A DNA stretch of 20,000 bases from an uncultured virus (IMG/VR IMGVR_UViG_3300020197_000011) (lineage: Duplodnaviria; Heunggongvirae; Uroviricota; Caudoviricetes). The DNA lies in the IMG/VR virus record IMGVR_UViG_3300020197_000011. The stretch is one strand, 5' to 3'. The notes beneath the pieces are model-generated. The model had not been told where the DNA came from and did not search any database. It saw only the letters and a list, made by a program, of their open reading frames with translations. The position numbers and the translations under genes were made by a program. Numbering within the stretch: position 1 is the first letter of the stretch; each line of letters starts with the position of its first letter. Shown in pieces: positions 1 through 11,807 of this stretch.

Positions 1-1376
1 GTTCCAAAAGGATTCTTTTCACTAAAATCAATAATTTGATCAGATTCTTCTTCAATTACATCATTCTGTGCATAAGGATCGACAAGATTATATGCTTGAA
101 CCTTCCTTAATTTATAAGATGCTGATGATGCTGTTCCAACAACAACATCACCATCTACAAAATCTTTTGTGATTTTGTAAACTTCTAATGCGCCAGTTGT
201 AGCATTCCAAGACTTAACTAATGCGGATGCTCCACTTATACTGCCAGTAACCGTTTCGTTAATAACATAAGTTCCAATACCGATCATATATGGGGATCCA
301 ATTGTAATTGTAGGTGCAACAGTATATCCGAGGCCTGCGTTAGTGATTGTAATTGACGTAACCACACCAGCAGTATTAATTTTTGCTCTACCTGTTGCTG
401 TAATACCTGTTCCAACTGGAGCCGCGCTAAAAGTAATGATTGGTGGAGTCGCATATCCACCACCACCACTTGTGAGATTTATTGCTCCCACAATACCATC
501 ACCAATAGTTGCTGTTGCCGCGGCCCCTGCACCACCTCCACCAATAAAAACAACAGATGGTGCTACAGTATATCCAAATCCAGGGTTTGTAAGTTCAACT
601 CCCTGAACTTTTAATGCACTTGTACCATTACAATCTACAAGATTACCAATCATTGTAGCGATACCAATTGCAGTTTGTCCTCCTGATGGAGCAGATGAAA
701 TTGCAACTGTTGGAGTTGATTTGTATCCACTACCTCTATTAGTGATCGTTATAAATCTAACGCCACCATTAACTACATTAGTAGTCGCTGTTGCAGTTGT
801 ACCAACTCCAACTAAAGTGAGTGTTTGAATATAACCATCATTTTCTACATTATCGTCAATTTCTTCAATTCCAGTATCAACGACTTCATCTTCATATCTA
901 AAGAGTTCACACCTCAGTTCATAAACATATGTTTTTTGAAGTTGATAAAATGGTTTTTCTTGCTCAACAAATTTTATTTCAAATAATCTATCGCCTAATG
1001 GAAAATAAATTAAGTCCCCCTCTTTGGGACGAGTTGATAATTTAATATTTGGTAAATTTTGAATCAATGGAGTAATATAATTTTCAAATCTGTCTTTTGA
1101 AATAATTAAAGTTAAATCTGTGAGTGGTTGAATTCCAAATTTTGATAAAATTGTTCCTTGTCCTTCATATCCTTCATAAGTATCAACATATGCTTCTAAT
1201 GGATATGCATTATCAAATTTTGATTCGATAACTTCTTTAATAATCGTTTTTTCCGTTACATATTGACGAGGAAGATAATGAATATCAACACCATACATGC
1301 GGAGTTGTTCATTGATCAAATCTTGAATCAATCCTTGTTCGTTTTTTGATCCCTGTAAAAAAAATGGATTGAGCAT
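1..1376 (-). CDS. gp14: T4-like neck (head-tail connector) protein gp14, enlarged cyanophage form; 3' end just outside the window
   Basis: Hand translation from ATG at 1376 gives MLNPFFLQGSKNEQGLIQDLINEQLRMYGVDIHYLPRQY...SKFGIQ...RPKEGDLIYFPLGDRLFEIKFVEQEKPFYQLQKTYVYELRCELFRYEDE, then a Gly/Thr-rich insert, ending ...DQIIDFSEKNPFG at the window edge. 458 codons without a stop. RPxEGDLIYFP, PFYQL and terminal DFSExNPFG are gp14-type motifs. Starts 1 nt after the gp13 stop. Confidence 0.93.
   Translation of the reverse strand, partial: MLNPFFLQGSKNEQGLIQDLINEQLRMYGVDIHYLPRQYVTEKTIIKEVIESKFDNAYPLEAYVDTYEGYEGQGTILSKFGIQPLTDLTLIISKDRFENYITPLIQNLPNIKLSTRPKEGDLIYFPLGDRLFEIKFVEQEKPFYQLQKTYVYELRCELFRYEDEVVDTGIEEIDDNVENDGYIQTLTLVGVGTTATATTNVVNGGVRFITITNRGSGYKSTPTVAISSAPSGGQTAIGIATMIGNLVDCNGTSALKVQGVELTNPGFGYTVAPSVVFIGGGGAGAAATATIGDGIVGAINLTSGGGGYATPPIITFSAAPVGTGITATGRAKINTAGVVTSITITNAGLGYTVAPTITIGSPYMIGIGTYVINETVTGSISGASALVKSWNATTGALEVYKITKDFVDGDVVVGTASSASYKLRKVQAYNLVDPYAQNDVIEEESDQIIDFSEKNPFG
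300..800 (-). repeat. Four degenerate protein-level repeats (IxIxNxGxGYxxxPxV) inserted in gp14
   Basis: ITITNRGSGYKSTPTV, VELTNPGFGYTVAPSV, INLTSGGGGYATPPII and ITITNAGLGYTVAPTI, spaced roughly 40-50 aa apart. Confidence 0.8.
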
Positions 1377-1377
1377 T

Positions 1378-2223
1378 TTATCCGATCATGTCCAGTGGGG
1401 GTAATTCGTATGTACTGGACATTCTCTCCATAAGAATATCTAGTTCTCTCTGAGCATCGTCATATATCTGTCTTCCGTTCAATTCAACTCCTCCAGGAAG
1501 TTTGACTCCTTGGAATTTAATTAAATTTTGTCCCCACTGACGTTTAATCAACGCTGTTAAGTATGGTTTTAAGAAAGAATCATTCCACACTCGTGCATAA
1601 TCATTACCGTCCATTGTTCTCCAACAATCGATAATGATCCAATTTCCCACTGCTGCACTACCCCAATCAATATCTAAGTAAAGTCTATCTTGTCTTTTAT
1701 TAAACCTAATTTGTTTATCAGTTGTCAAAAGAAAATCAATATCTTCAAGATAAGTTTTAACCATTGCATAAGTTAACAATTCAGTAGATCCCCAATAATA
1801 AACATCGTTGAGAAACAACTGATATTTAACACTAAACATATTATGAGTAATACTATTAGTGCCGTCAAATTTATAAATTTTGTTTACTCCAATTACGGAT
1901 GGATGAACTGGCAAATAATTTCCATTCTCTTCATATTTAAATGATGTACTATATCCTACAGTTTCAGTTACAGTTGTGGTTGTAATGCCTACAGATCCAG
2001 ATGATCCACCTCTTGCTCTTCCTCTATCAATATCATCTTGTGTGATCTGATATTTCATATAAGTTTGATAGACACCATCAAAGTGTCTTTCTTGGAAGAA
2101 TTGAACTGCATCATCAACAAGATCTTCAATCTGCTCATCAGCAACATTGATCTCTAAAACTGGATAACCCAGTTTTCTTTTACAATAATCGATAAGCTCT
2201 TGTCGAGTAGATGGTTGTGCCAT
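1378..2223 (-). CDS. gp13: T4-like neck protein gp13
   Basis: 281-aa ORF with RQELIDYCKRKLGYPVLEINV...QIEDLVDDAVQFFQERHFDG and ALIKRQWGQNLIKFQGVKLPGGVELNGRQIYDDA...PPLDMIG, typical of gp13; directly upstream of gp14 as in T4. Confidence 0.95.
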   Translation of the reverse strand: MAQPSTRQELIDYCKRKLGYPVLEINVADEQIEDLVDDAVQFFQERHFDGVYQTYMKYQITQDDIDRGRARGGSSGSVGITTTTVTETVGYSTSFKYEENGNYLPVHPSVIGVNKIYKFDGTNSITHNMFSVKYQLFLNDVYYWGSTELLTYAMVKTYLEDIDFLLTTDKQIRFNKRQDRLYLDIDWGSAAVGNWIIIDCWRTMDGNDYARVWNDSFLKPYLTALIKRQWGQNLIKFQGVKLPGGVELNGRQIYDDAQRELDILMERMSSTYELPPLDMIG

Positions 2224-2387
2224 TAGAGTTGTGTCAAGACTTCTTGTTGTTTTAGATACAACTTAATATACATCCTTGAAAGGGTTTTCAAAGTTTCAAG
2301 ATCATTAATACTATCTATATCTCTTGAATGTTTCTCATATTCAAACATTTTATTAATATTTTCTAATGTAATACTATTTGGATCCAT
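2223..2387 (-). CDS. 54-aa helix-loop-helix protein, putative NblA-like phycobilisome degradation adaptor
   Basis: Below the ORF-track cut-off. ATG at 2387, TAA at 2223-2225. Translation: MDPNSITLENINKMFEYEKHSRDIDSINDLETLKTLSRMYIKLYLKQQEVLTQL. AGGAG lies 8 nt upstream and the stop overlaps the gp13 start (TAATG). It exactly fills the gap between its neighbours. The gene itself is well supported; the NblA resemblance is by eye only. Confidence 0.7.
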   Translation of the reverse strand: MDPNSITLENINKMFEYEKHSRDIDSINDLETLKTLSRMYIKLYLKQQEVLTQL

Positions 2388-2601
2388 TGATCATACTCCT
2401 GAGCAAATTTTTAATCTCATCTAAATCACTTTTCATAGAATTTACTTCATTTTCTAGAGACTGAATTTTTTCAAATTCAATCTCCTTAACACGTTTTTGT
2501 TCTAAGTAATTTTTATATTCAACCATGTTAACATTCAAAATTGCTTGAGTTTGTTCGTCACGAACTAAGTTGTCATGTCCGTCTACTTTAGAAAACATCA
2601 T
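2374..2601 (-). CDS. Small hypothetical phage protein (~75 aa) with C-terminal coiled coil
   Basis: The ORF track starts it at a TTG at 2616, inside the upstream gene. ATGATG at 2601/2598, 1 nt after the upstream TGA, is the more likely start. The N-terminal KVDGHDNLVRDEQTQAILN motif resembles small genes found after the large structural protein in T4-like cyanophages. Heptad pattern in IQSLENEVNSMKSDLDEIKNLL. Confidence 0.8.
   Translation of the reverse strand: MMFSKVDGHDNLVRDEQTQAILNVNMVEYKNYLEQKRVKEIEFEKIQSLENEVNSMKSDLDEIKNLLRSMINGSK
2396..2400 (-). promoter_or_regulatory. Shine-Dalgarno site (AGGAG) for the 54-aa ORF
   Basis: Minus strand reads AGGAG-TATGATCA-ATG (8-nt spacer), embedded in the 3' end of the upstream 75-aa gene. 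Confidence 0.7.
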
Positions 2602-2602
2602 A

Positions 2603-5600
2603 TCATGCGAGAGCAATAACTCTAAATTCTCTTAATCTTGGTGGATGAGCCTGATCTTGAGAAGATCCAATTAATTTAACACTAAAGTATCTAAACTCTG
2701 GTAAGTTATTAATAGTGAATTGATACTCTTTATATTCCAATTCAGGACTTAAGTTCTTAAAGTTTGCTGATTTTGCAATATTCTTGTCAGGAAGTCCATC
2801 ATTATTTGCTGAATCAATGATTGATCCAAGATTAGTTAAATTATTATAACCTGGGAATGGATAGTATACTGGAGTTTCATTTGGATCTTTCATGATGGCA
2901 TATAATGCTCTCAGATCGCTCAATTGATTTACATAACCAGCTGTGATAATCTTTAATGATGATGCAGGAACTTCAAGCGAAATTGCATTTGTAGCATAAA
3001 CAAATGCAGATGGATCGTCTTTCAAAGATGAAACTCTAAAGTCTGTAGCATAATTTGTGATTGGACTATTTACTCTATTGCTTGTAAGAATTACACTTAC
3101 CCTATCTAAGTCAATAACTGGAGAAATATTTTCATCAGCACTACTTAATTTCATATTCAATGTCAAAGATTTACTTCCTGGGAATGTTGCTGGGATAAGT
3201 TTAGTAGATTCGTTAATCTTAGATGCAATAATTCGAGGTGTTGAGAAGTAAGTGTTGCCATCCAAATTAATGGGTTCAAATCCTTGATCCAGATAGGACT
3301 CTTCGGTGCCATCAATACTACTACCACTAGTTGTTCTCACAGTTGCAGTAATATTAGTATTTGTCAACTTCATTGTTTGAATATTTGGTTTGATGATTTC
3401 AAACGGAATATTTTGAGTTGCATAAATGTTTGGGCCGCCAGCAGACTTAGTTTCATTAATATAAAGTCTTGGGAATGAAGTACTAACGCTCCTATCAACT
3501 TGTCCGTGTGGTGAAGATTCAGTCTTACCTGCCTGACTTGTATCTACTTTGATATAATAATAATCAAGATCTAAAGATCTATCTAAATCTGATGCATCTT
3601 GAAGAGTATGTGTTTTATTGATTCTTCTCAACGAAACACCATCAAGTTCATATTTAAATACTGGAGTTCCTGTAGTGTAAGTAAACGATTTGGTTTGATC
3701 AATTTGTCTTGTAATTCCAGTAAGAGTATTTCCACTTACACCTTCATAAGCAATAATTTCTTGATCAATTAATACATAACCTGGATTTGTAGAACTTACG
3801 CTTACGTTTTCAAATGTCTGGAAAATACTGATTCCCGTAATTGGATCAAGAATCATATCTGACAATGAAATTGATGCAGTAGAATCTTTAGCAACATCAG
3901 CAGTTAAAAATGATGGTAAAGAATCTGGATATACTCCAGAAATTGTAACATCATTGTTTAATGCATACATTCCATGATTCTTATGATTTACCTTAATGAA
4001 GGTTCCTTCCTTATCTTCAGAATCGACAGTAGCATAAGTTACCTCTACATTTCCTGCCGTTCCATTTAAGTTTGTGGATCCAATTCCTGTTGCAATATAC
4101 GCAATAGTGCTTCCTGCACCAGTTGTAAATGTTCCTTGAACATTATCAACGATCAGTTCATTAATTGCGTCAATTGATGAGACTGACAGTCTCAGGTTTC
4201 TTCCCAATACACTACCACCAAAATTAGTTGCAGTTAAAACATCACCAACTCTATATCCAGAACCTGGATAACTGATTGTGGCTGCTGTAGCTACATTGTT
4301 AATAATTGTAATTTTTGCAGTTGCGTCTCTTCCAGATCCTGTTACATTTGCAAGAGCAACGTCTGCAAAAACACCATCAGAATAACCGATACCTGCATTC
4401 ACAATTGTCATGGTTCCTGTTGCAGAACCGGCAGCACCTACATAATTGCCACTTGCATTTGAATTCGTTTGAATAATCGTATTTCCAAGAGTTAATCCAG
4501 TGTCTGTTACAGTTTTTCCTAATCCTATTCGGAGAACTCTTGAATTAAGTTCCAATGGATTTATAAGCAAGTTTGCAATTTGCTTGTTTCCAATATTTAA
4601 ATCTGGATTGTAGAAGTTGATGTCGCCAATTGAAGATGTATTAAACTCTGCCCTATACAGAGTCATCTTGAGATCTTCATATTGACTTGGATCCCAAGTT
4701 GATCCATTTTGAGACTTAAACAGAGATCCTAACAGAGGTTGTTGAGTAACAATAACTTGTTGAGACTCTGGGCCAGATGCCGTATCTGCAGTCGCTTCTC
4801 CCAATCTAGAAATCCAAACATTATATTCATTGGATTCTGAAAGAAGAACAATTGCATGTTCTTGTCCACCTTTCAAATAAACTGGTGAGGGGAAGACAAT
4901 AGTAGTTTTTACTGAACCATCATCTGAAACATTGATATCTTTTGGTTCTACCGCAATGGAACTTAATGGATAAACCTCAGATTTGGGTGTTCCCAATGTC
5001 ATTGGACGAAATTGAACAATGACTGGTAAAGTGTCATCTTTTGTTCTAAAGTAAAGATCAACTTTGGTTACAAAAATACCATTCTCTTCGTCAACAAAGA
5101 ACGATTGTGCGAGAGGATCCCAATAGCAGTATCCCCAACGTCCATATCTATACCAAGGATTATATCCAACAACATTAGATGATGCACTGGTTGATGTTTC
5201 AGTTATAGTTCTATTTTCAGTTAATGTTTCTGACGTAAACTCAGCACTTCTAGTTGAAACAATAGTTTCTTGGATTGTATCAAGTTTTCCTTGAGCGTAA
5301 TAACTTCCTTCGCCACTTGTATCAACTACACCGTCAATTTGAGAATTGACAGAACTACTTGTTAATCTAAAAGTTTTGGTTCCGGTTTCAAATGTTGGAT
5401 TTGTTGGTACATTTGGATTTGGAATGAGGAAAGATCCAATAACTGTTCCTACATTGTCAGTAACTAATCGAACATTATTAATTGTTGCCTCAGCACCACT
5501 AGTTTGTCCCCTCAATTTAATACCACTAACAACACTTCCATAGAAAGATCCTAAAGCCTGCTCAGCAAGACTTGAAACGTCTATATTAAGAATTGTAGAT

Positions 5601-8600
5601 GTGGATGAGTAATCTGAAGGTAATGCAGTGGTATTTTGTTGATCATATGGGTTTCTTACAAATATATCTATTGGATTATTAAATGGCCCATATTTATGAT
5701 TCGGCGCAGCAACTCTAAAAACAATAGACTCTAGAGTCGTTTGTGGAGTAAAATTTTCTGCAATTGCATTTAGTGGCAGTGATCCAACGACAGTTTCGCC
5801 AACTTCAAATACACCAGACTCCATGGTAATTTCGAGTAATTTTGGAGTGATATATGTGTTAACGTCTTGTCCATCAAAGAACGAATATACTTGAGTAAAA
5901 GGCCTAAATCTCTTTCCTGTAAACTCAACGTTTCGAGATCTCATGTACTGGAGCATCTCACTGGATACTACAGAATCTCCTAAAGATTCGGTAGTAACTC
6001 TTTCATGCAATTGTAAACGAGTACCAGATCTTTGCTGCTGCTTTGTGGTTGTTGCGGTTGTTGTGGTTGTTACTAAAGCGCCGCCCCACCAGCCGCCCCA
6101 CCATCCACCATAACGGGGATGTCCTGCATAATATCCATAATATCCACCATACCAACCATAATATCTTCCCCAACCCCAATATGGCCAACCATAACCATAA
6201 TATTGAGCCGATTGGGATTGTGATGATGTAGTTCCACTCCAAGTTGTCTCCCAAGCACCCCAAGTTACTGGACTATATCCTGTTTGAGGATCCCATCCTT
6301 GAGCAATTAATTGATCTTGTGTAGCTGTAAAGTTATCAATTTCAACACGCTTTGCATCAATTCTAACTTGATCAACCCAAGTATCTGATGATGGGAACAG
6401 TTCAATTTGTCCATTATATTTTGTAACTAAGAAAGGAGTGACATTAACAGATCTTGTAGCATATGGTTGAATAACTTTTTCAACATCAGTATAATCAAGA
6501 GTAATTAACTGTCCTGTTCTTCTAATATTATTACCAACCAAATCGGTTACAAATCTAGAATCTGCAGTAGGATCTACAGATTGTCCGATACCGATTAAGG
6601 ATTTAGAACCAATTAATAAGTCAACTTGAGTTGTGTATGGAGATGGACGCAACTCTGAGTTTACTGGATCAATACTATTTTTGATAATTGTTGATTTATT
6701 TTGAGAATTTGTTGTTGTAAAATCGTCAACAAAGAATCCAGATTTAAATCTATCAACACCCAAAGTATCTTTAATTGTTGTGTTTTGAGTAACTGTTTCT
6801 AAAAGATTTAAAGTTGTATATGACTCTAAATTTTTAATTCTTTCTTCAAGATTTGAGATATCTTTCATTTGATATCTCTTATGCTGTAAGAAGTTTATTT
6901 GTACTTTTGATACATCACACAGATATGGTGGTAATGTAATTGTAGCAACTTCTAATGCGTCTGGTAACGCTGGAGGTAATTCGGGATTTTCTGCAGGATC
7001 TCCTAAGTTTAATTGGAAAATTCCTTCTTTAGTTAAAAACAATCTATCAACTCTTGGAAGATAATGTGAATAACTTAATACAATAGATTCGTCTGATGCA
7101 AGAATATTTCTTCCACTATTGCCACTGATAGAAAATGTTCTTGATAAAAATTCAAATGGGGATCTAGTACCTTCAGTAGTTGTATAATTTGCAACTCTTG
7201 GCCTAATATCTAAAATATCTGTATTATTTACATTTGGTTTTGCAAATGCAACTGTACAATAATCGAATTGATTATAAGAATCTGCAGTTGTAATATCTCC
7301 CAAATCAGAAGATGCAAATCCTGCAGACTCAAAAATAATTTTTAATTTTTTTGATGGTTCTTTAGTGTTTGCTTTTCTAATTACCCTTACATAATTATAA
7401 ATTGTATCAGTTTGTCCATAATCCAATTCATAGTTGTTTAAAATGTTTGTAGATCCTAATTCAATAGTCTGAATGACTCCAGTGATTCCCGATTCTTTAA
7501 ATGTAACAACTTCGTTTTCTTGAAAGGTTTTTTCATTTAAATATAAAAAGTCAATTTTTAAATCATTATTTCTAGCAACATAAACGCCAACTGCTTTACT
7601 GGTTTTTCCAACAAATTGCTCACCAACCAATAAATCGCCCGTTTTTGCGGTTGGGCCATTTAATTGATTGAATGTAATTGCTGGAGTAATTGGATCGTCA
7701 GTATTATTTGATTCTAAAATTGCATATAAGAAAGTAACTTCTGGAGTATTCAGCGAAATTTCTTCATCCTGAACTCTTGTACCATATGGATATGATCCAT
7801 ATGTAAGTCCATCATTTAATGTCGTGGATCCAATCCCAGATGCACTTAACTTTGAATTATTAATAACTAAAGTATTGATTCTGTTTTTATTTTTTACTTT
7901 TGATGTAACATTAATTTTTCTTAATGTTGTAATTAATCTAGCATTTGTATCATTTGTCCCCAATCCAAAGATTGTAAGTTGCTTAGATTCACTATCAAAA
8001 ACCAACTTGTCGGAAGTTAAAACTTCAAATGTTCCATCTGAACGGGTTAAAACATATCTTTCTTCGTCAAAAGGTAAGAAGAACTCGTTAGTTCCTGCAG
8101 TAACAGTATTTGTCTGATTGCTCGTAATTGAAACAGAAAATTCTTTTCTAATGGTTAAATTTGATTCAGTCAAATCTACCGACATGACATATGATTTTGG
8201 AAGTTGAGTATATAAAGTATTGTCTGAAGAAATTTGGAACCTTGATCCAAGAATAGTTAAGTCAGTTACATTAGAAGATGTTGAAGGTGGAGATCCCTTA
8301 TTGATTCCCGTAACAGTAGTAATACCAGTAACTGTAATTGTTCTTGGTTCTATTGTTAATACTTTAGATAAAGTTGGAAGTGCAGAACCTGGGACTGTAT
8401 ATCCAACTAATGATCCAACTTTTAAATTATTTGTAAATGTAAAATCAGTTGATGTTGGAATTGTAATGCTACTAATACCTGCTGTTGATAGTGCAGTAAT
8501 AGAAGCAATTCCAACGTTGTAAACTGCTGATGGAATAATATCTCCGGTAAAGATAGTGCTAATACCACTTAATTGAGATACGGATTGTATATCTCTAGTA

Positions 8601-10222
8601 GTATACTCGGTAATTGCAGTAGAAACTCTACTTGTAGTTTCAACTCCATTGAAAATAAACTTTTCTCCAGATGCAAAAGATCCTTGAACACCGTATGCCG
8701 TTATAATACCGGCATTATTAACATCAAATCTCAGATAACCAGTAGCTCCACTTGCCTTTCCTTTAATGTGAACTGGAGTAGATAATGTAATTGGTTCATT
8801 CAATGAAATTTCGGTATAAGTTTCAATATCAAATAATGCAATATCCCATTGATTTAAGTTTGCATTTGAAGTAGTATAGGATCCTGATTCTAGAGCAAAA
8901 TCATAAACTCTAGCAACTCCAATTTCTTTTCCTGCCCCAACTGTCTGAGATGTTCCAACTCTCGAATCTCTTAAACTTACAATAAAAGGACTTGCAAGAT
9001 CTAAGTTAGGAGCGCCATAAACACGATTTAATGTATAAGTTGAACCAGTTAAGTATTGAATACTTGCGTTGGGTTGTGTTTTAGTTGTTCTTGGTTTCTT
9101 AAAGTCTAAAAATACAGTAGAAGTTGTTTCTACCTCACAACCTTTGATATAAGCTTTTCCTGGAGAAATTTTATAAGTTCCTAAATCATCTGCTGGAACA
9201 TTATTATTATATGTTAACTGTACGGGATCAAATACCCCACTATTTCCCAAATAATTGTTTAATGTCTCTTTTGGAGTGATTGAAAACGATTTTACATAGT
9301 AATCGCCAGATTCGTCTGAAGTTCTTCTTGCCAACTCTGTTTGAAGAACATTATACTGTGGATTTGGTGTAGTGTTTTTGATTAATACACCATTTCTAAT
9401 TTCAAGAAGTCCTACAAAGTTTTCTGTATTAACTACATCAATTTCTTTTTTAGATAACTGTGCTGAAATTTTAAAACGATCAGCGCCTGGAGCAGCATAA
9501 TTTGAAAATCCTTGAGCATTATCATTTAAACTTTCATCTTCGTCTGAAGTAATGATTTCTTCAATAACATCAAGTCCGACTTTGTATGATGGTTGGTTTG
9601 AGTATGGATCTAAAATTAAAGTTTCATCATCAACTTCAACAAAAGATCCTCTTAAGAAATAGATACCAGCAGATAAAATGATTGCTGATCCAATAGCTGA
9701 GCAGTCTGAAGTTGTATTTGCAAATCCTTCCCCTGCCTGAATAATAATAGCATCTTTAGTAAAAAGTTCTTGCAGGTTTAATTTTTCTCTATCGGAAAAT
9801 ACTCTTTGCTCTTCAATACCAGATGCCAAATAACTTACATATAATGTAGCATACTCGTTTCCAATTTCATTTTCAGTCAAAACATGAATAATTTTTGCTT
9901 CAACTTTAGTAGTATCTCCAATAATAGTTTTTCCTACTAAGCCTGGAAGATATTGATTTACATCTATTCCCAAATATTGATTTTCAATTTTTACAGCAAA
10001 AAATTGATTGTTATAGTTTATCTGGCCTGGAATTACAACAGATCCTTCTTTAAATACATGATTACCAAATTGCTCAATTTGATTTTGTAGAGTTGATTGT
10101 AAAGTCGTTAATTCTCTTGCCTGAACAGGATATCCCGGTTTGAATAATACCTTATGATAATTTTTTGTTGCATCAAAATCATCAAAATATGGCGAAACGT
10201 TGAGGTTAGTCTGTTGAGGCAT
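2603..10222 (-). CDS. Giant virion structural protein, DUF4815 / VrlC-like (baseplate/tail-associated)
   Basis: 2539-aa ORF. N-terminus NLNVSPYFDDFD...KVLFKPGYPVQARELTTLQSTLQNQI...VFKEG, plus NDNAQGFSNYAAPGADRFKI, LARRTSDESGDY, YLPRVDRL, RFKSGFFVDDF, DPLAQSF, GSLFKSQNGSTW and terminal PPRLREFRVIALA, are characteristic of the DUF4815-type protein that follows gp8 in T4-like cyanophages. Confidence 0.88.
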   Translation of the reverse strand: MPQQTNLNVSPYFDDFDATKNYHKVLFKPGYPVQARELTTLQSTLQNQIEQFGNHVFKEGSVVIPGQINYNNQFFAVKIENQYLGIDVNQYLPGLVGKTIIGDTTKVEAKIIHVLTENEIGNEYATLYVSYLASGIEEQRVFSDREKLNLQELFTKDAIIIQAGEGFANTTSDCSAIGSAIILSAGIYFLRGSFVEVDDETLILDPYSNQPSYKVGLDVIEEIITSDEDESLNDNAQGFSNYAAPGADRFKISAQLSKKEIDVVNTENFVGLLEIRNGVLIKNTTPNPQYNVLQTELARRTSDESGDYYVKSFSITPKETLNNYLGNSGVFDPVQLTYNNNVPADDLGTYKISPGKAYIKGCEVETTSTVFLDFKKPRTTKTQPNASIQYLTGSTYTLNRVYGAPNLDLASPFIVSLRDSRVGTSQTVGAGKEIGVARVYDFALESGSYTTSNANLNQWDIALFDIETYTEISLNEPITLSTPVHIKGKASGATGYLRFDVNNAGIITAYGVQGSFASGEKFIFNGVETTSRVSTAITEYTTRDIQSVSQLSGISTIFTGDIIPSAVYNVGIASITALSTAGISSITIPTSTDFTFTNNLKVGSLVGYTVPGSALPTLSKVLTIEPRTITVTGITTVTGINKGSPPSTSSNVTDLTILGSRFQISSDNTLYTQLPKSYVMSVDLTESNLTIRKEFSVSITSNQTNTVTAGTNEFFLPFDEERYVLTRSDGTFEVLTSDKLVFDSESKQLTIFGLGTNDTNARLITTLRKINVTSKVKNKNRINTLVINNSKLSASGIGSTTLNDGLTYGSYPYGTRVQDEEISLNTPEVTFLYAILESNNTDDPITPAITFNQLNGPTAKTGDLLVGEQFVGKTSKAVGVYVARNNDLKIDFLYLNEKTFQENEVVTFKESGITGVIQTIELGSTNILNNYELDYGQTDTIYNYVRVIRKANTKEPSKKLKIIFESAGFASSDLGDITTADSYNQFDYCTVAFAKPNVNNTDILDIRPRVANYTTTEGTRSPFEFLSRTFSISGNSGRNILASDESIVLSYSHYLPRVDRLFLTKEGIFQLNLGDPAENPELPPALPDALEVATITLPPYLCDVSKVQINFLQHKRYQMKDISNLEERIKNLESYTTLNLLETVTQNTTIKDTLGVDRFKSGFFVDDFTTTNSQNKSTIIKNSIDPVNSELRPSPYTTQVDLLIGSKSLIGIGQSVDPTADSRFVTDLVGNNIRRTGQLITLDYTDVEKVIQPYATRSVNVTPFLVTKYNGQIELFPSSDTWVDQVRIDAKRVEIDNFTATQDQLIAQGWDPQTGYSPVTWGAWETTWSGTTSSQSQSAQYYGYGWPYWGWGRYYGWYGGYYGYYAGHPRYGGWWGGWWGGALVTTTTTATTTKQQQRSGTRLQLHERVTTESLGDSVVSSEMLQYMRSRNVEFTGKRFRPFTQVYSFFDGQDVNTYITPKLLEITMESGVFEVGETVVGSLPLNAIAENFTPQTTLESIVFRVAAPNHKYGPFNNPIDIFVRNPYDQQNTTALPSDYSSTSTILNIDVSSLAEQALGSFYGSVVSGIKLRGQTSGAEATINNVRLVTDNVGTVIGSFLIPNPNVPTNPTFETGTKTFRLTSSSVNSQIDGVVDTSGEGSYYAQGKLDTIQETIVSTRSAEFTSETLTENRTITETSTSASSNVVGYNPWYRYGRWGYCYWDPLAQSFFVDEENGIFVTKVDLYFRTKDDTLPVIVQFRPMTLGTPKSEVYPLSSIAVEPKDINVSDDGSVKTTIVFPSPVYLKGGQEHAIVLLSESNEYNVWISRLGEATADTASGPESQQVIVTQQPLLGSLFKSQNGSTWDPSQYEDLKMTLYRAEFNTSSIGDINFYNPDLNIGNKQIANLLINPLELNSRVLRIGLGKTVTDTGLTLGNTIIQTNSNASGNYVGAAGSATGTMTIVNAGIGYSDGVFADVALANVTGSGRDATAKITIINNVATAATISYPGSGYRVGDVLTATNFGGSVLGRNLRLSVSSIDAINELIVDNVQGTFTTGAGSTIAYIATGIGSTNLNGTAGNVEVTYATVDSEDKEGTFIKVNHKNHGMYALNNDVTISGVYPDSLPSFLTADVAKDSTASISLSDMILDPITGISIFQTFENVSVSSTNPGYVLIDQEIIAYEGVSGNTLTGITRQIDQTKSFTYTTGTPVFKYELDGVSLRRINKTHTLQDASDLDRSLDLDYYYIKVDTSQAGKTESSPHGQVDRSVSTSFPRLYINETKSAGGPNIYATQNIPFEIIKPNIQTMKLTNTNITATVRTTSGSSIDGTEESYLDQGFEPINLDGNTYFSTPRIIASKINESTKLIPATFPGSKSLTLNMKLSSADENISPVIDLDRVSVILTSNRVNSPITNYATDFRVSSLKDDPSAFVYATNAISLEVPASSLKIITAGYVNQLSDLRALYAIMKDPNETPVYYPFPGYNNLTNLGSIIDSANNDGLPDKNIAKSANFKNLSPELEYKEYQFTINNLPEFRYFSVKLIGSSQDQAHPPRLREFRVIALA
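6080..6165. repeat. Short in-frame tandem repeats inside the Trp/Tyr/Gly-rich segment
   Basis: gccgccccacca x2 at 6080-6103 (WWGG units); cataatatc at 6127-6135, 6136-6144 and 6157-6165 (G/R-YY units). Confidence 0.8.
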
Positions 10223-10228
10223 GATTCT

Positions 10229-11782
10229 TTAGAATTGCAAAATGACTTTAATATCTTCTTTTTGGTTAGTTGATCTAGTAATCGATGGACGATTATCAAC
10301 ATAAATTGTATTTCCAGAATATTTTTTGACTTCTGGATTTGCTACACCACTTGTAAAATCTTGGCCCAAATAATATGTCCTACTATTTATTGTAGTTGAA
10401 ATACCACTAAATCCAGTGTCAATTGAAAGGTTTGTGCTGCCACCTTGAATCGTTAGAGAACCTCCACTTGCTGGTAAGGAAGTAAATCTATTTAATTTAA
10501 ATCCATATGTTGGAAGAGAATTTTGGGTTCCATCAGTATTAAACCCAACCAAGGTTCTGTCTTGCCAATATTTTAAAACACCAGTATTTTGATCATATGA
10601 AATAACCCTACCAACCGCTGTAGATCCAACACCAACTGTTTGAGTGATTCTACTATCTGCTGCGAATGTAGCTGAACTATATCCAACTCCAGTCAATTTT
10701 AGAGCATAGACTGCACTTGCTTTATCAAGATTTAATAAAGAAGTTGATCCATATGCCTCTGGATTTTCAATAATTCCAACCCTAGCAATTTGATTTCCTG
10801 TAATAAAATCTGGATTTTGGGAGTCATTTTCAATTCTAGAGTAAATTAAAACATTAAATGCACCCAATTCTCTATAAATGTTTGCACCATGTCCACCTTT
10901 AGGTGGAATAATTACATCAAAAGTTGGTGCGGTTGTTCCTGTCGGTACATTTCCAGCAACTAAATCAACAGTTCCGTAGGTATATCCAGATCCTCCATTA
11001 GAAATAGTAATAGATTCTACTTTAGAATCATTATTAATAATGACTGTTGCTTCTGCATTAAAACCATCTCCACGAATAGGAACTCTGGTATAAGTTTTGT
11101 TTGCTGTTCCTAAACCAACTCCACGATTTACAATTGTTACAATTTTTAATTGTCCACTAGTAGAAGCATTGTTTCTTACAGCCGAATCTGTAGAATTGGT
11201 TTCCCAATCTCTAGGAACTGGCATAAAGTTAATAGAATCAAACTTAACAATATCGCTTGGTTTAATTGTATAAAGATACTTCCAAATATATCCATCTCCA
11301 CTATTACCAGCAGATCTTGGCTCTAAATCTGTAAAAGTTGGCTCATCTAATGATGGTTTTCCTTCTGGATTTTCAGGATCAATGCCATTATAAAGACAAA
11401 TATAAACTTTATAATCGCTATTTACTACATAAAAATTTGATGAATATAAACTGGTTACTCCTGAAGGCTTTGATAAATTAGTTCTACTAATATCATGCCG
11501 ATACATGTCATATGTTGTACCAGAAGTCCAAGTGATTTTTCGAATTACTTGTTTTACGTCACTGGAATTAATTTTTTTTAATGCAATTGCAGTGTCCCAA
11601 TGATCATTTTCTTGATCAAAATTATCCTTTGGGGCAGGAGGATTAATATCCCAATTAGAGCTATAATTTGTTGCATTGGGAAGTCCTACAAAAGCATAAT
11701 AAGAATTTGCTGAAGATGTTGCTGCAGCAACGAAATTCTTCGCATTTAAAATTCTTAATTGATCAGTTATAATTGCAGACAT
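10229..11782 (-). CDS. gp8: T4-like baseplate wedge subunit gp8
   Basis: 517-aa ORF with MSAIITDQLRILNAKNFV, WTSGTTYDMYRHD, FYVVNSDYKVYICL, DGYIWKYLYTI, FMPVP and terminal YVDNRPSITRSTNQKEDIKVILQF; positioned right after the gp7-like gene. Confidence 0.92.
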   Translation of the reverse strand: MSAIITDQLRILNAKNFVAAATSSANSYYAFVGLPNATNYSSNWDINPPAPKDNFDQENDHWDTAIALKKINSSDVKQVIRKITWTSGTTYDMYRHDISRTNLSKPSGVTSLYSSNFYVVNSDYKVYICLYNGIDPENPEGKPSLDEPTFTDLEPRSAGNSGDGYIWKYLYTIKPSDIVKFDSINFMPVPRDWETNSTDSAVRNNASTSGQLKIVTIVNRGVGLGTANKTYTRVPIRGDGFNAEATVIINNDSKVESITISNGGSGYTYGTVDLVAGNVPTGTTAPTFDVIIPPKGGHGANIYRELGAFNVLIYSRIENDSQNPDFITGNQIARVGIIENPEAYGSTSLLNLDKASAVYALKLTGVGYSSATFAADSRITQTVGVGSTAVGRVISYDQNTGVLKYWQDRTLVGFNTDGTQNSLPTYGFKLNRFTSLPASGGSLTIQGGSTNLSIDTGFSGISTTINSRTYYLGQDFTSGVANPEVKKYSGNTIYVDNRPSITRSTNQKEDIKVILQF

Positions 11783-11799: not shown

Positions 11800-11807
11800 T
11801 ATTTATG
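11800..11807 (-). promoter_or_regulatory. T4-type late promoter-like element (CATAAATA)
   Basis: Minus strand reads CATAAATAGATAAAAAAACGACAAAATG: 7/8 match to the T4 gp55 late promoter TATAAATA, overlapping the gp7 stop codon and 17 nt before the gp8 ATG. Confidence 0.7.

Follow-up and report, generated by a model that had tools for sequence, protein, structure and literature searches.

The 54-aa ORF at 2223-2387 of the window (the whole 20,000-nt stretch of DNA analysed here) is a real, conserved gene. Judging from sequence comparison and structure modelling, it is likely to encode a divergent NblA-like proteolysis adaptor of an uncultured freshwater T4-like cyanophage (Kyanoviridae-type).

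Reading the sequence bore out every detail of the gene layout given in the original prediction, namely a 54-aa ORF that is preceded by an AGGAG motif, overlaps the upstream gene by 14 nt and meets gp13 in a TAATG junction (Table 1). The minus strand reads ...ttgctc AGGAG tatgatca ATG gat cca..., which places a spacer of 8 nt between AGGAG and ATG. The start codon occupies 2387-2385 and the stop codon TAA 2225-2223, and this stop has one A in common with the ATG of gp13. All large genes of the window lie on the minus strand, and the neighbours named beforehand, a baseplate gene and the neck gene gp13, were confirmed through matches to phrog_211 and PF09215/phrog_438.

Table 1. Features of the window around the NblA-like gene
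Feature	Position	Strand	Remarks
gp14 neck protein / head closure	3..1376	(-)	PF11649, E 6.8e-31; phrog_460; runs off the window
gp13 neck protein / head-tail adaptor Ad2	1378..2223	(-)	281 aa; phrog_211, E 6.2e-47
NblA-like gene	2223..2387	(-)	54 aa; phrog_27081; MDPNSITLENINKMFEYEKHSRDIDSINDLETLKTLSRMYIKLYLKQQEVLTQL
Overlap of upstream small gene end and NblA-like gene start	2374..2387	(-)	14 nt; upstream TAG at 2376-2374
AGGAG Shine-Dalgarno motif	2396..2400	(-)	8 nt 5' of ATG; within the end of the upstream gene
Small virion structural protein gene	2374..2616	(-)	80 aa from TTG; phrog_473, E 2.5e-20
2539-aa ORF	2603..10222	(-)	Gene at the same position in S-SM2 and S-SRM01 annotated VrlC / virulence-associated VriC (position only)
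ATAAATA	5691-5697	(-)	Nearest copy upstream of the NblA-like gene; inside the 2539-aa ORF
gp8-like baseplate wedge gene	10229..11782	(-)	PF09215, phrog_438; ATAAATA at 11806-11800 just 5' of the start
ATAAATA	10384-10390	(-)	Motif match
ATAAATA	11800-11806	(-)	17 nt 5' of the gp8-like start (11782); resembles a late promoter of the T4 type

Two neighbouring genes deserve a remark of their own. With the TTG start at 2616, the small virion gene would overlap the 2539-aa ORF by 14 nt; an ATG at 2601 lies 1 nt past the stop of that ORF and gives a small virion protein of 75 aa. Because the phrog_473 match begins at residue 9, the ATG at 2601 is probably the true start. The giant virion-type 2539-aa ORF contains a Trp/Gly/Tyr-rich low-complexity stretch (YYGYGWPYWGWGRYYGWYGGYYGYY...GGWWGGWWGG) at residues ~1180-1230.

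An ORF of only 54 aa in an AT-rich region might overlap real genes by chance and never be expressed. Conservation ruled this reading out, and we give it practically no credence. The protein matches phrog_27081 with an E value of 3.5e-21 (residues 1-53 of a 59-position profile), and its relatives form 478 clusters at 90% identity and 214 clusters at 50% identity (E<=0.001); at least 490 stretches confirmed in IMG/VR encode such a relative. Relatives with 65-83% identity to the window protein (41 sequences) share 16 invariant columns (M1, I6, L8, K13, F15, E16, Y17, E18, R22, D25, I27, L43, Y44, Q47, Q48, and E49). A Shine-Dalgarno-like motif is kept in 71 of 80 loci, these being the best 80 of the at least 490 from IMG/VR.

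Homologues in isolated phages were found by tblastn, with 46-65% identity for those of S-SCSM1, S-SRM01, S-SM2, S-TIM5, and Bellamy. With 94-100% of the window protein aligned, identity is 57% to S-SCSM1 ORF237, 65% to the S-SRM01 protein, and 46% to the proteins of both S-SM2 and S-TIM5. Two of the 25 isolate records with a homologue carry an nblA annotation, S-SCSM1 ORF237 as 'phycobilisome degradation protein (nblA)' and S-SCSM2R ORF118 as 'NblA'. A 2022 paper gives an HHpred value of 95.5% for the match of S-SCSM1 ORF237 to Nostoc PCC 7120 NblA, and values of 96.4-97.3% for the matches of the S-B43, S-B05, S-SM2 (YP_004322257), Bellamy, S-SKS1, SynMITS9220M01, and S-SRM01 homologues to T. 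vulcanus NblA (PMC9602691). A 2010 genome paper that included S-SM2 states that nblA was not observed among marine cyanophages (PMC3037559).

The NblA-like gene was once overlooked but is no longer so, as both publications and GenBank entries already cover the family and assign it to NblA. The original prediction had described the gene as hidden, which holds for ORF lists with a 60-aa cut-off only: homologues are called as genes in GenBank (e.g., S-SM2 SSM2_101), and the family has been in print since 2022. Pfam misses the whole clade, and most records for that reason still list the family as a hypothetical protein. A cluster look-up of ten relatives returned no informative names. In S-SKS1, the homologous stretch (L004, locus 2264-2677) lies in the C-terminal part of the 137-aa CDS SWZG_00226; a start called too far upstream could explain this, as could a fusion.

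The link to NblA is that of a remote match. It draws on the public nblA annotation, the published HHpred values (95.5-97.3%), our own hhalign comparisons, and the fold and dimer models, and in this sense the NblA-like identity put forward in the original prediction was supported. The comparison with the Pfam NblA family that had been suggested alongside it turned out negative. The Pfam model PF04485 (gathering score 25 bits) did not match the window protein at E<=10 and matched 0 of 75 family representatives; none of the 4 carrier phage records searched in six frames (4/4) gave a match, and the same model did match the Synechococcus elongatus control genome. Searches of PDB sequences with phmmer and hmmsearch returned no NblA, only leucine-rich-repeat and other chance matches. 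When the phage collection was searched by tblastn with the NblAs of Ma-LMM01 and Nostoc, only Microcystis phages were found.

Profile-profile comparison was more informative. Canonical NblA sets were assembled from Ma-LMM01, cyanobacterial plasmids, their relatives, and IMG/VR contigs, and the hhalign queries were a diverse alignment of the 75 family representatives (A2) and a narrow family alignment (A1). A2 matched the first canonical set at 47.5% (P 1.9e-4, score 25.8, 59 columns), the second at 60.4% (P 8.5e-5), and an 18-sequence set at 50.7% (P 1.6e-4). Against the Microcystis-phage type alone the value was 34%, and against a non-Microcystis canonical set it was 10.2% (P 3e-3). These five comparisons (10-60%) share one constant register from end to end, at an identity of only 13-16%. 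The register places helix 2 on the canonical EQAQ..L..YKQMMIRE helix and F15 on the F of LEQEF, in agreement with the conserved-looking F that had been picked out by eye.

The controls set the real score apart. Reversed alignments scored lower (12.8-14.5), and none of the 100 column shuffles made in either set 1 (mean 10.2, sd 2.3, max 17.9) or set 2 (mean 10.0, sd 2.1, max 17.0) came up to the real score. The A2 alignment gave 0.4% against a Nostoc-type-only set, and the narrow A1 gave 0.2-2% as query. The hhalign support for the NblA link thus appears real but moderate and depends on the make-up of the alignments; our figures fall short of the published HHpred values, for which deeper alignments and secondary-structure scoring were used. 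Resting on the published HHpred matches (PMC9602691) and this moderate hhalign signal, homology to NblA is probable. In the ESM Atlas, the rank-3 cluster (viral, score 0.90) carries the automatic name 'Phycobilisome degradation protein family protein', and the nearest cluster with a Pfam family has PF04485 in 14% of its members (0.76), which is only a lead.

The predicted model of the protein comprises a helix at residues 8-26, a loop at 27-29, and a second helix at 30-52, and so has the helix-loop-helix layout and approximate size of NblA that the original prediction had read from the sequence. Foldseek searches with the model returned no PDB match at E<=10 and nothing in BFVD at E<=0.001. 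A homodimer was predicted with a score of 0.50, against 0.00 for the best control, which supports, as a prediction, the pairing that had been proposed for modelling; of proteins with solved structures, 20 of 30 pairs and 1 of 23 single chains reached this mark. The homodimer runs agreed in at least 96% of their contacts with a partner pLDDT of at least 77, and the predicted interface involves mainly residues 36-49 of helix 2, with symmetric contacts 33:33, 37:37, and 40:40. The prediction may lean on solved NblA dimers; it speaks for likeness rather than for binding.

The C-terminus sets the window protein apart from canonical NblAs. An alignment of 11 canonical sequences has an invariant W56 and a nearly invariant K53; this C-terminal K..W segment is absent from the window protein, which ends one column before it. 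Nostoc NblA requires its C-terminal Leu and Lys residues to bind phycobiliproteins. According to a recent study (Nature 2025, PMC12695635), the NblAs of picocyanobacteria retain the dimer architecture despite strong sequence divergence, and a general profile misses many of them; because of this divergence, the K..W motif may not define the wider NblA family. As the Pfam model is not matched and the K..W columns are missing, we file the protein under phrog_27081, the NblA-like family of cyanomyoviruses, which is probably a remote branch of NblA, and do not count the protein as a strict member of PF04485.

We compared the layout of the locus in the best 80 of the at least 490 confirmed IMG/VR loci, among which the closest relatives are over-represented. 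The slot upstream of gp13, which the original prediction had marked for a survey in related phages, recurs: in 78 of these best 80 loci the NblA-like gene begins where a homologue of the upstream small virion gene ends, and in 55 TAATG is found at the NblA-like stop. Within the same best 80, gp13 follows after no more than 15 nt in 50 loci, after 41-51 nt in 5, after 399-416 nt in 8, and after 639-972 nt in 12, and was not seen within the flank in 5.

The isolates show a wider range of contexts. The S-SM2 and S-SRM01 records place the gene after the small virion gene, annotated with the overlap seen here, and ahead of gp13; there is one gene in between in S-SM2 and there are two in S-SRM01, whereas in the window the gene abuts gp13. 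The Bellamy homologue lies ~430 nt before its neck gene. The homologues of S-TIM5 and S-SKS1 are found among small hypothetical genes and tRNAs, that of S-SCSM1 between a virion protein gene and a helicase gene, and that of S-SCSM2R directly ahead of the large terminase gene, several genes beyond the neck gene. Given these varied contexts elsewhere and the one slot here, the NblA-like gene is mobile, yet settled in one slot in this lineage. In the paper library searched, we found no published discussion of nblA placement next to gp13; the supplementary or Extended Data of PMC12695635 may bear on the clade.

A fixed slot between two virion genes fits an assembly role, and the main rival to an NblA-like adaptor is a small morphogenesis factor, for example a chaperone of assembly or a minor protein associated with the neck or baseplate, built as a dimeric hairpin whose likeness to NblA would be convergent or irrelevant. 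We regard this as unlikely. The gene is present in 25 records compared to 473 with gp13, too sporadic for a core assembly factor, and it is restricted to cyanophages. It also lies away from gp13 in S-TIM5, S-SKS1, and S-SCSM1 and past the neck gene in S-SCSM2R; the non-structural contexts in the first three are as would be expected of a mobile auxiliary gene. The virion proteome of S-SCSM1 names only three proteins that were predicted to be non-structural, and the NblA homologue is not among them, a weak point given that mass spectrometry easily misses small proteins.

The records with gp13 were those with a homologue at E<=1e-40, and comprised 364 Synechococcus, 61 Cyanophage, 24 Prochlorococcus, and 24 other entries without a cyanophage name. 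Because 25 records carry the NblA-like homologue against the 473 with gp13, cyanomyoviruses carry the gene only sporadically, in the manner of auxiliary genes. The three phages with the closest gp13 proteins (69-71% identity), SynMITS9220M01, Bellamy, and S-SM2, all carry it. The original prediction had named homologues in phages of non-cyanobacterial hosts as evidence that would speak against it. In our tblastn search of the isolate collection these were not common, all 25 of the 25 records with a homologue being Synechococcus phages or cyanophages. We considered the absence of the gene from the 24 Prochlorococcus-named phages as a further piece of evidence and rejected it, as the absence is not significant when about 25 of about 449 cyanophage-named records carry the gene.

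The window itself comes from fresh water. Its DNA was found at half or more of the sampled words in 23 lake-water metagenome runs, 12 of which may be the source of the DNA, and a lagoon run has about a third of the sampled words. S-SRM01, the isolate with the closest homologue, is also from fresh water. A search of a genome collection with the narrow alignment A1 gave four loci, all in non-cyanobacterial MAGs with phage context, and 0 loci in picocyanobacterial genomes; the patterns used are specific to the phage clade and silent on host homologues. The four loci (L007-L010) lie on short contigs labelled Crocinitomicaceae, Methanobacteriota, Pirellulaceae, and Acetobacteraceae. They look like mis-binned cyanophage DNA, because the upstream small virion gene is present on three of the four contigs and gp13 on two.

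Several metagenomic relatives combine the NblA-like domain with other sequence. P0154, which stands for a cluster of 13, has a ~70-aa phrog_3426 domain of unassigned function N-terminal to the NblA-like domain, and P0139 has the phrog_3426 domain C-terminal to it. P0152 has a C-terminal extension with no phrog_3426 score. P0121 (134 aa) contains two NblA-like repeats in one chain and P0245 (134 aa) also has two matched stretches, which suggests that these chains are a covalent 'dimer' form of the family.

A different host-takeover or adaptor protein on an NblA-like scaffold could account for such fusions with phrog_3426 in either order, for the tandem duplicate, and for the missing K..W columns; it might recruit Clp to targets other than phycobilisomes, or be a small regulator or counter-defence protein. 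We hold this to be distinctly improbable, as no positive evidence points to any specific alternative target and all isolate carriers were isolated on Synechococcus hosts.

We favour an NblA-like proteolysis adaptor, which could act in the following way. The 54-aa chain would fold as a helix-loop-helix and pair through helix 2 into a four-helix dimer, as modelled. By homology with cellular and other viral NblAs, the dimer would bind phycobiliproteins and ClpC and so deliver the antenna to ClpC-ClpP3/R; it may also couple host proteins other than phycobiliproteins to ClpC-ClpP. Degradation would free amino acids for phage protein synthesis and lower light harvesting, as shown for S-TIP37. To judge by the layout, the gene probably shares its transcription and translation with the morphogenesis genes, because the double overlap leaves no room for an intergenic promoter.

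The timing of its expression is judged here by position. Overlap with virion genes on both sides would point to late expression, as would the slot in the morphogenesis block. The T4 late-promoter motif TATAAATA occurs 0 times in the window compared to 3.3 expected; ATAAATA occurs three times compared to 12.7 +/- 3.6 expected, all on the coding strand (Table 1). Scans for sigma-70 promoters and terminators around the NblA-like gene were below or near shuffle expectation. In a bolder version, which we consider quite unlikely, the adaptor would have moved to the late morphogenesis operon and become coupled to gp13 such that Clp proteolysis, of the antenna or of other proteins, is timed to assembly and not to DNA replication; or else the scaffold, which has no canonical C-terminus, would have been re-targeted and would bring another host or phage substrate to ClpC during assembly.

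These questions of timing matter in view of what viral NblAs do elsewhere. The NblA of the T7-like phage S-TIP37 shortens the latent period and directs phycobilisome degradation, and its gene, located after an exonuclease gene, is co-expressed with DNA polymerase ahead of the morphogenesis genes; viral NblA speeds infection and cuts host light harvesting at ocean scale, all in work on T7-like phages (PMC12695635). The phrog_27081 family would be the myovirus counterpart of the T7-like phage NblA; its members abound in metagenomes and occur in both lakes and the sea. Its fixed slot in a virion-gene block differs from the replication module in which the tested T7-like nblA sits and from the pre-morphogenesis timing of that gene (PMC12695635), and makes it possible to test directly whether T4-like cyanophages schedule antenna degradation late.

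Compared with canonical NblA/Ycf18 (PF04485; 1OJH, 2Q8V), the window protein is of similar size (about 55-65 aa) but falls below the Pfam model and lacks the C-terminal K..W segment. It belongs to the same family, phrog_27081, as S-SCSM1 ORF237 and the S-TIM5-type NblA (PMC9602691), and differs from those in coming from lake-water metagenomes rather than from an isolate. The NblAs of S-TIP37 and Ma-LMM01 are likewise encoded by cyanophages. They resemble canonical NblA in sequence, whereas the window protein is far more divergent, and the viral NblAs tested by experiment belong to clades other than the phrog_27081 family. In both phages nblA is found with DNA-metabolism genes, in Ma-LMM01 between nrdA and nrdB, whereas the window gene sits inside a morphogenesis block. 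The new element is modest: a freshwater, uncultured member of the family, whose gene is locked between the small virion gene and gp13 in this lineage.
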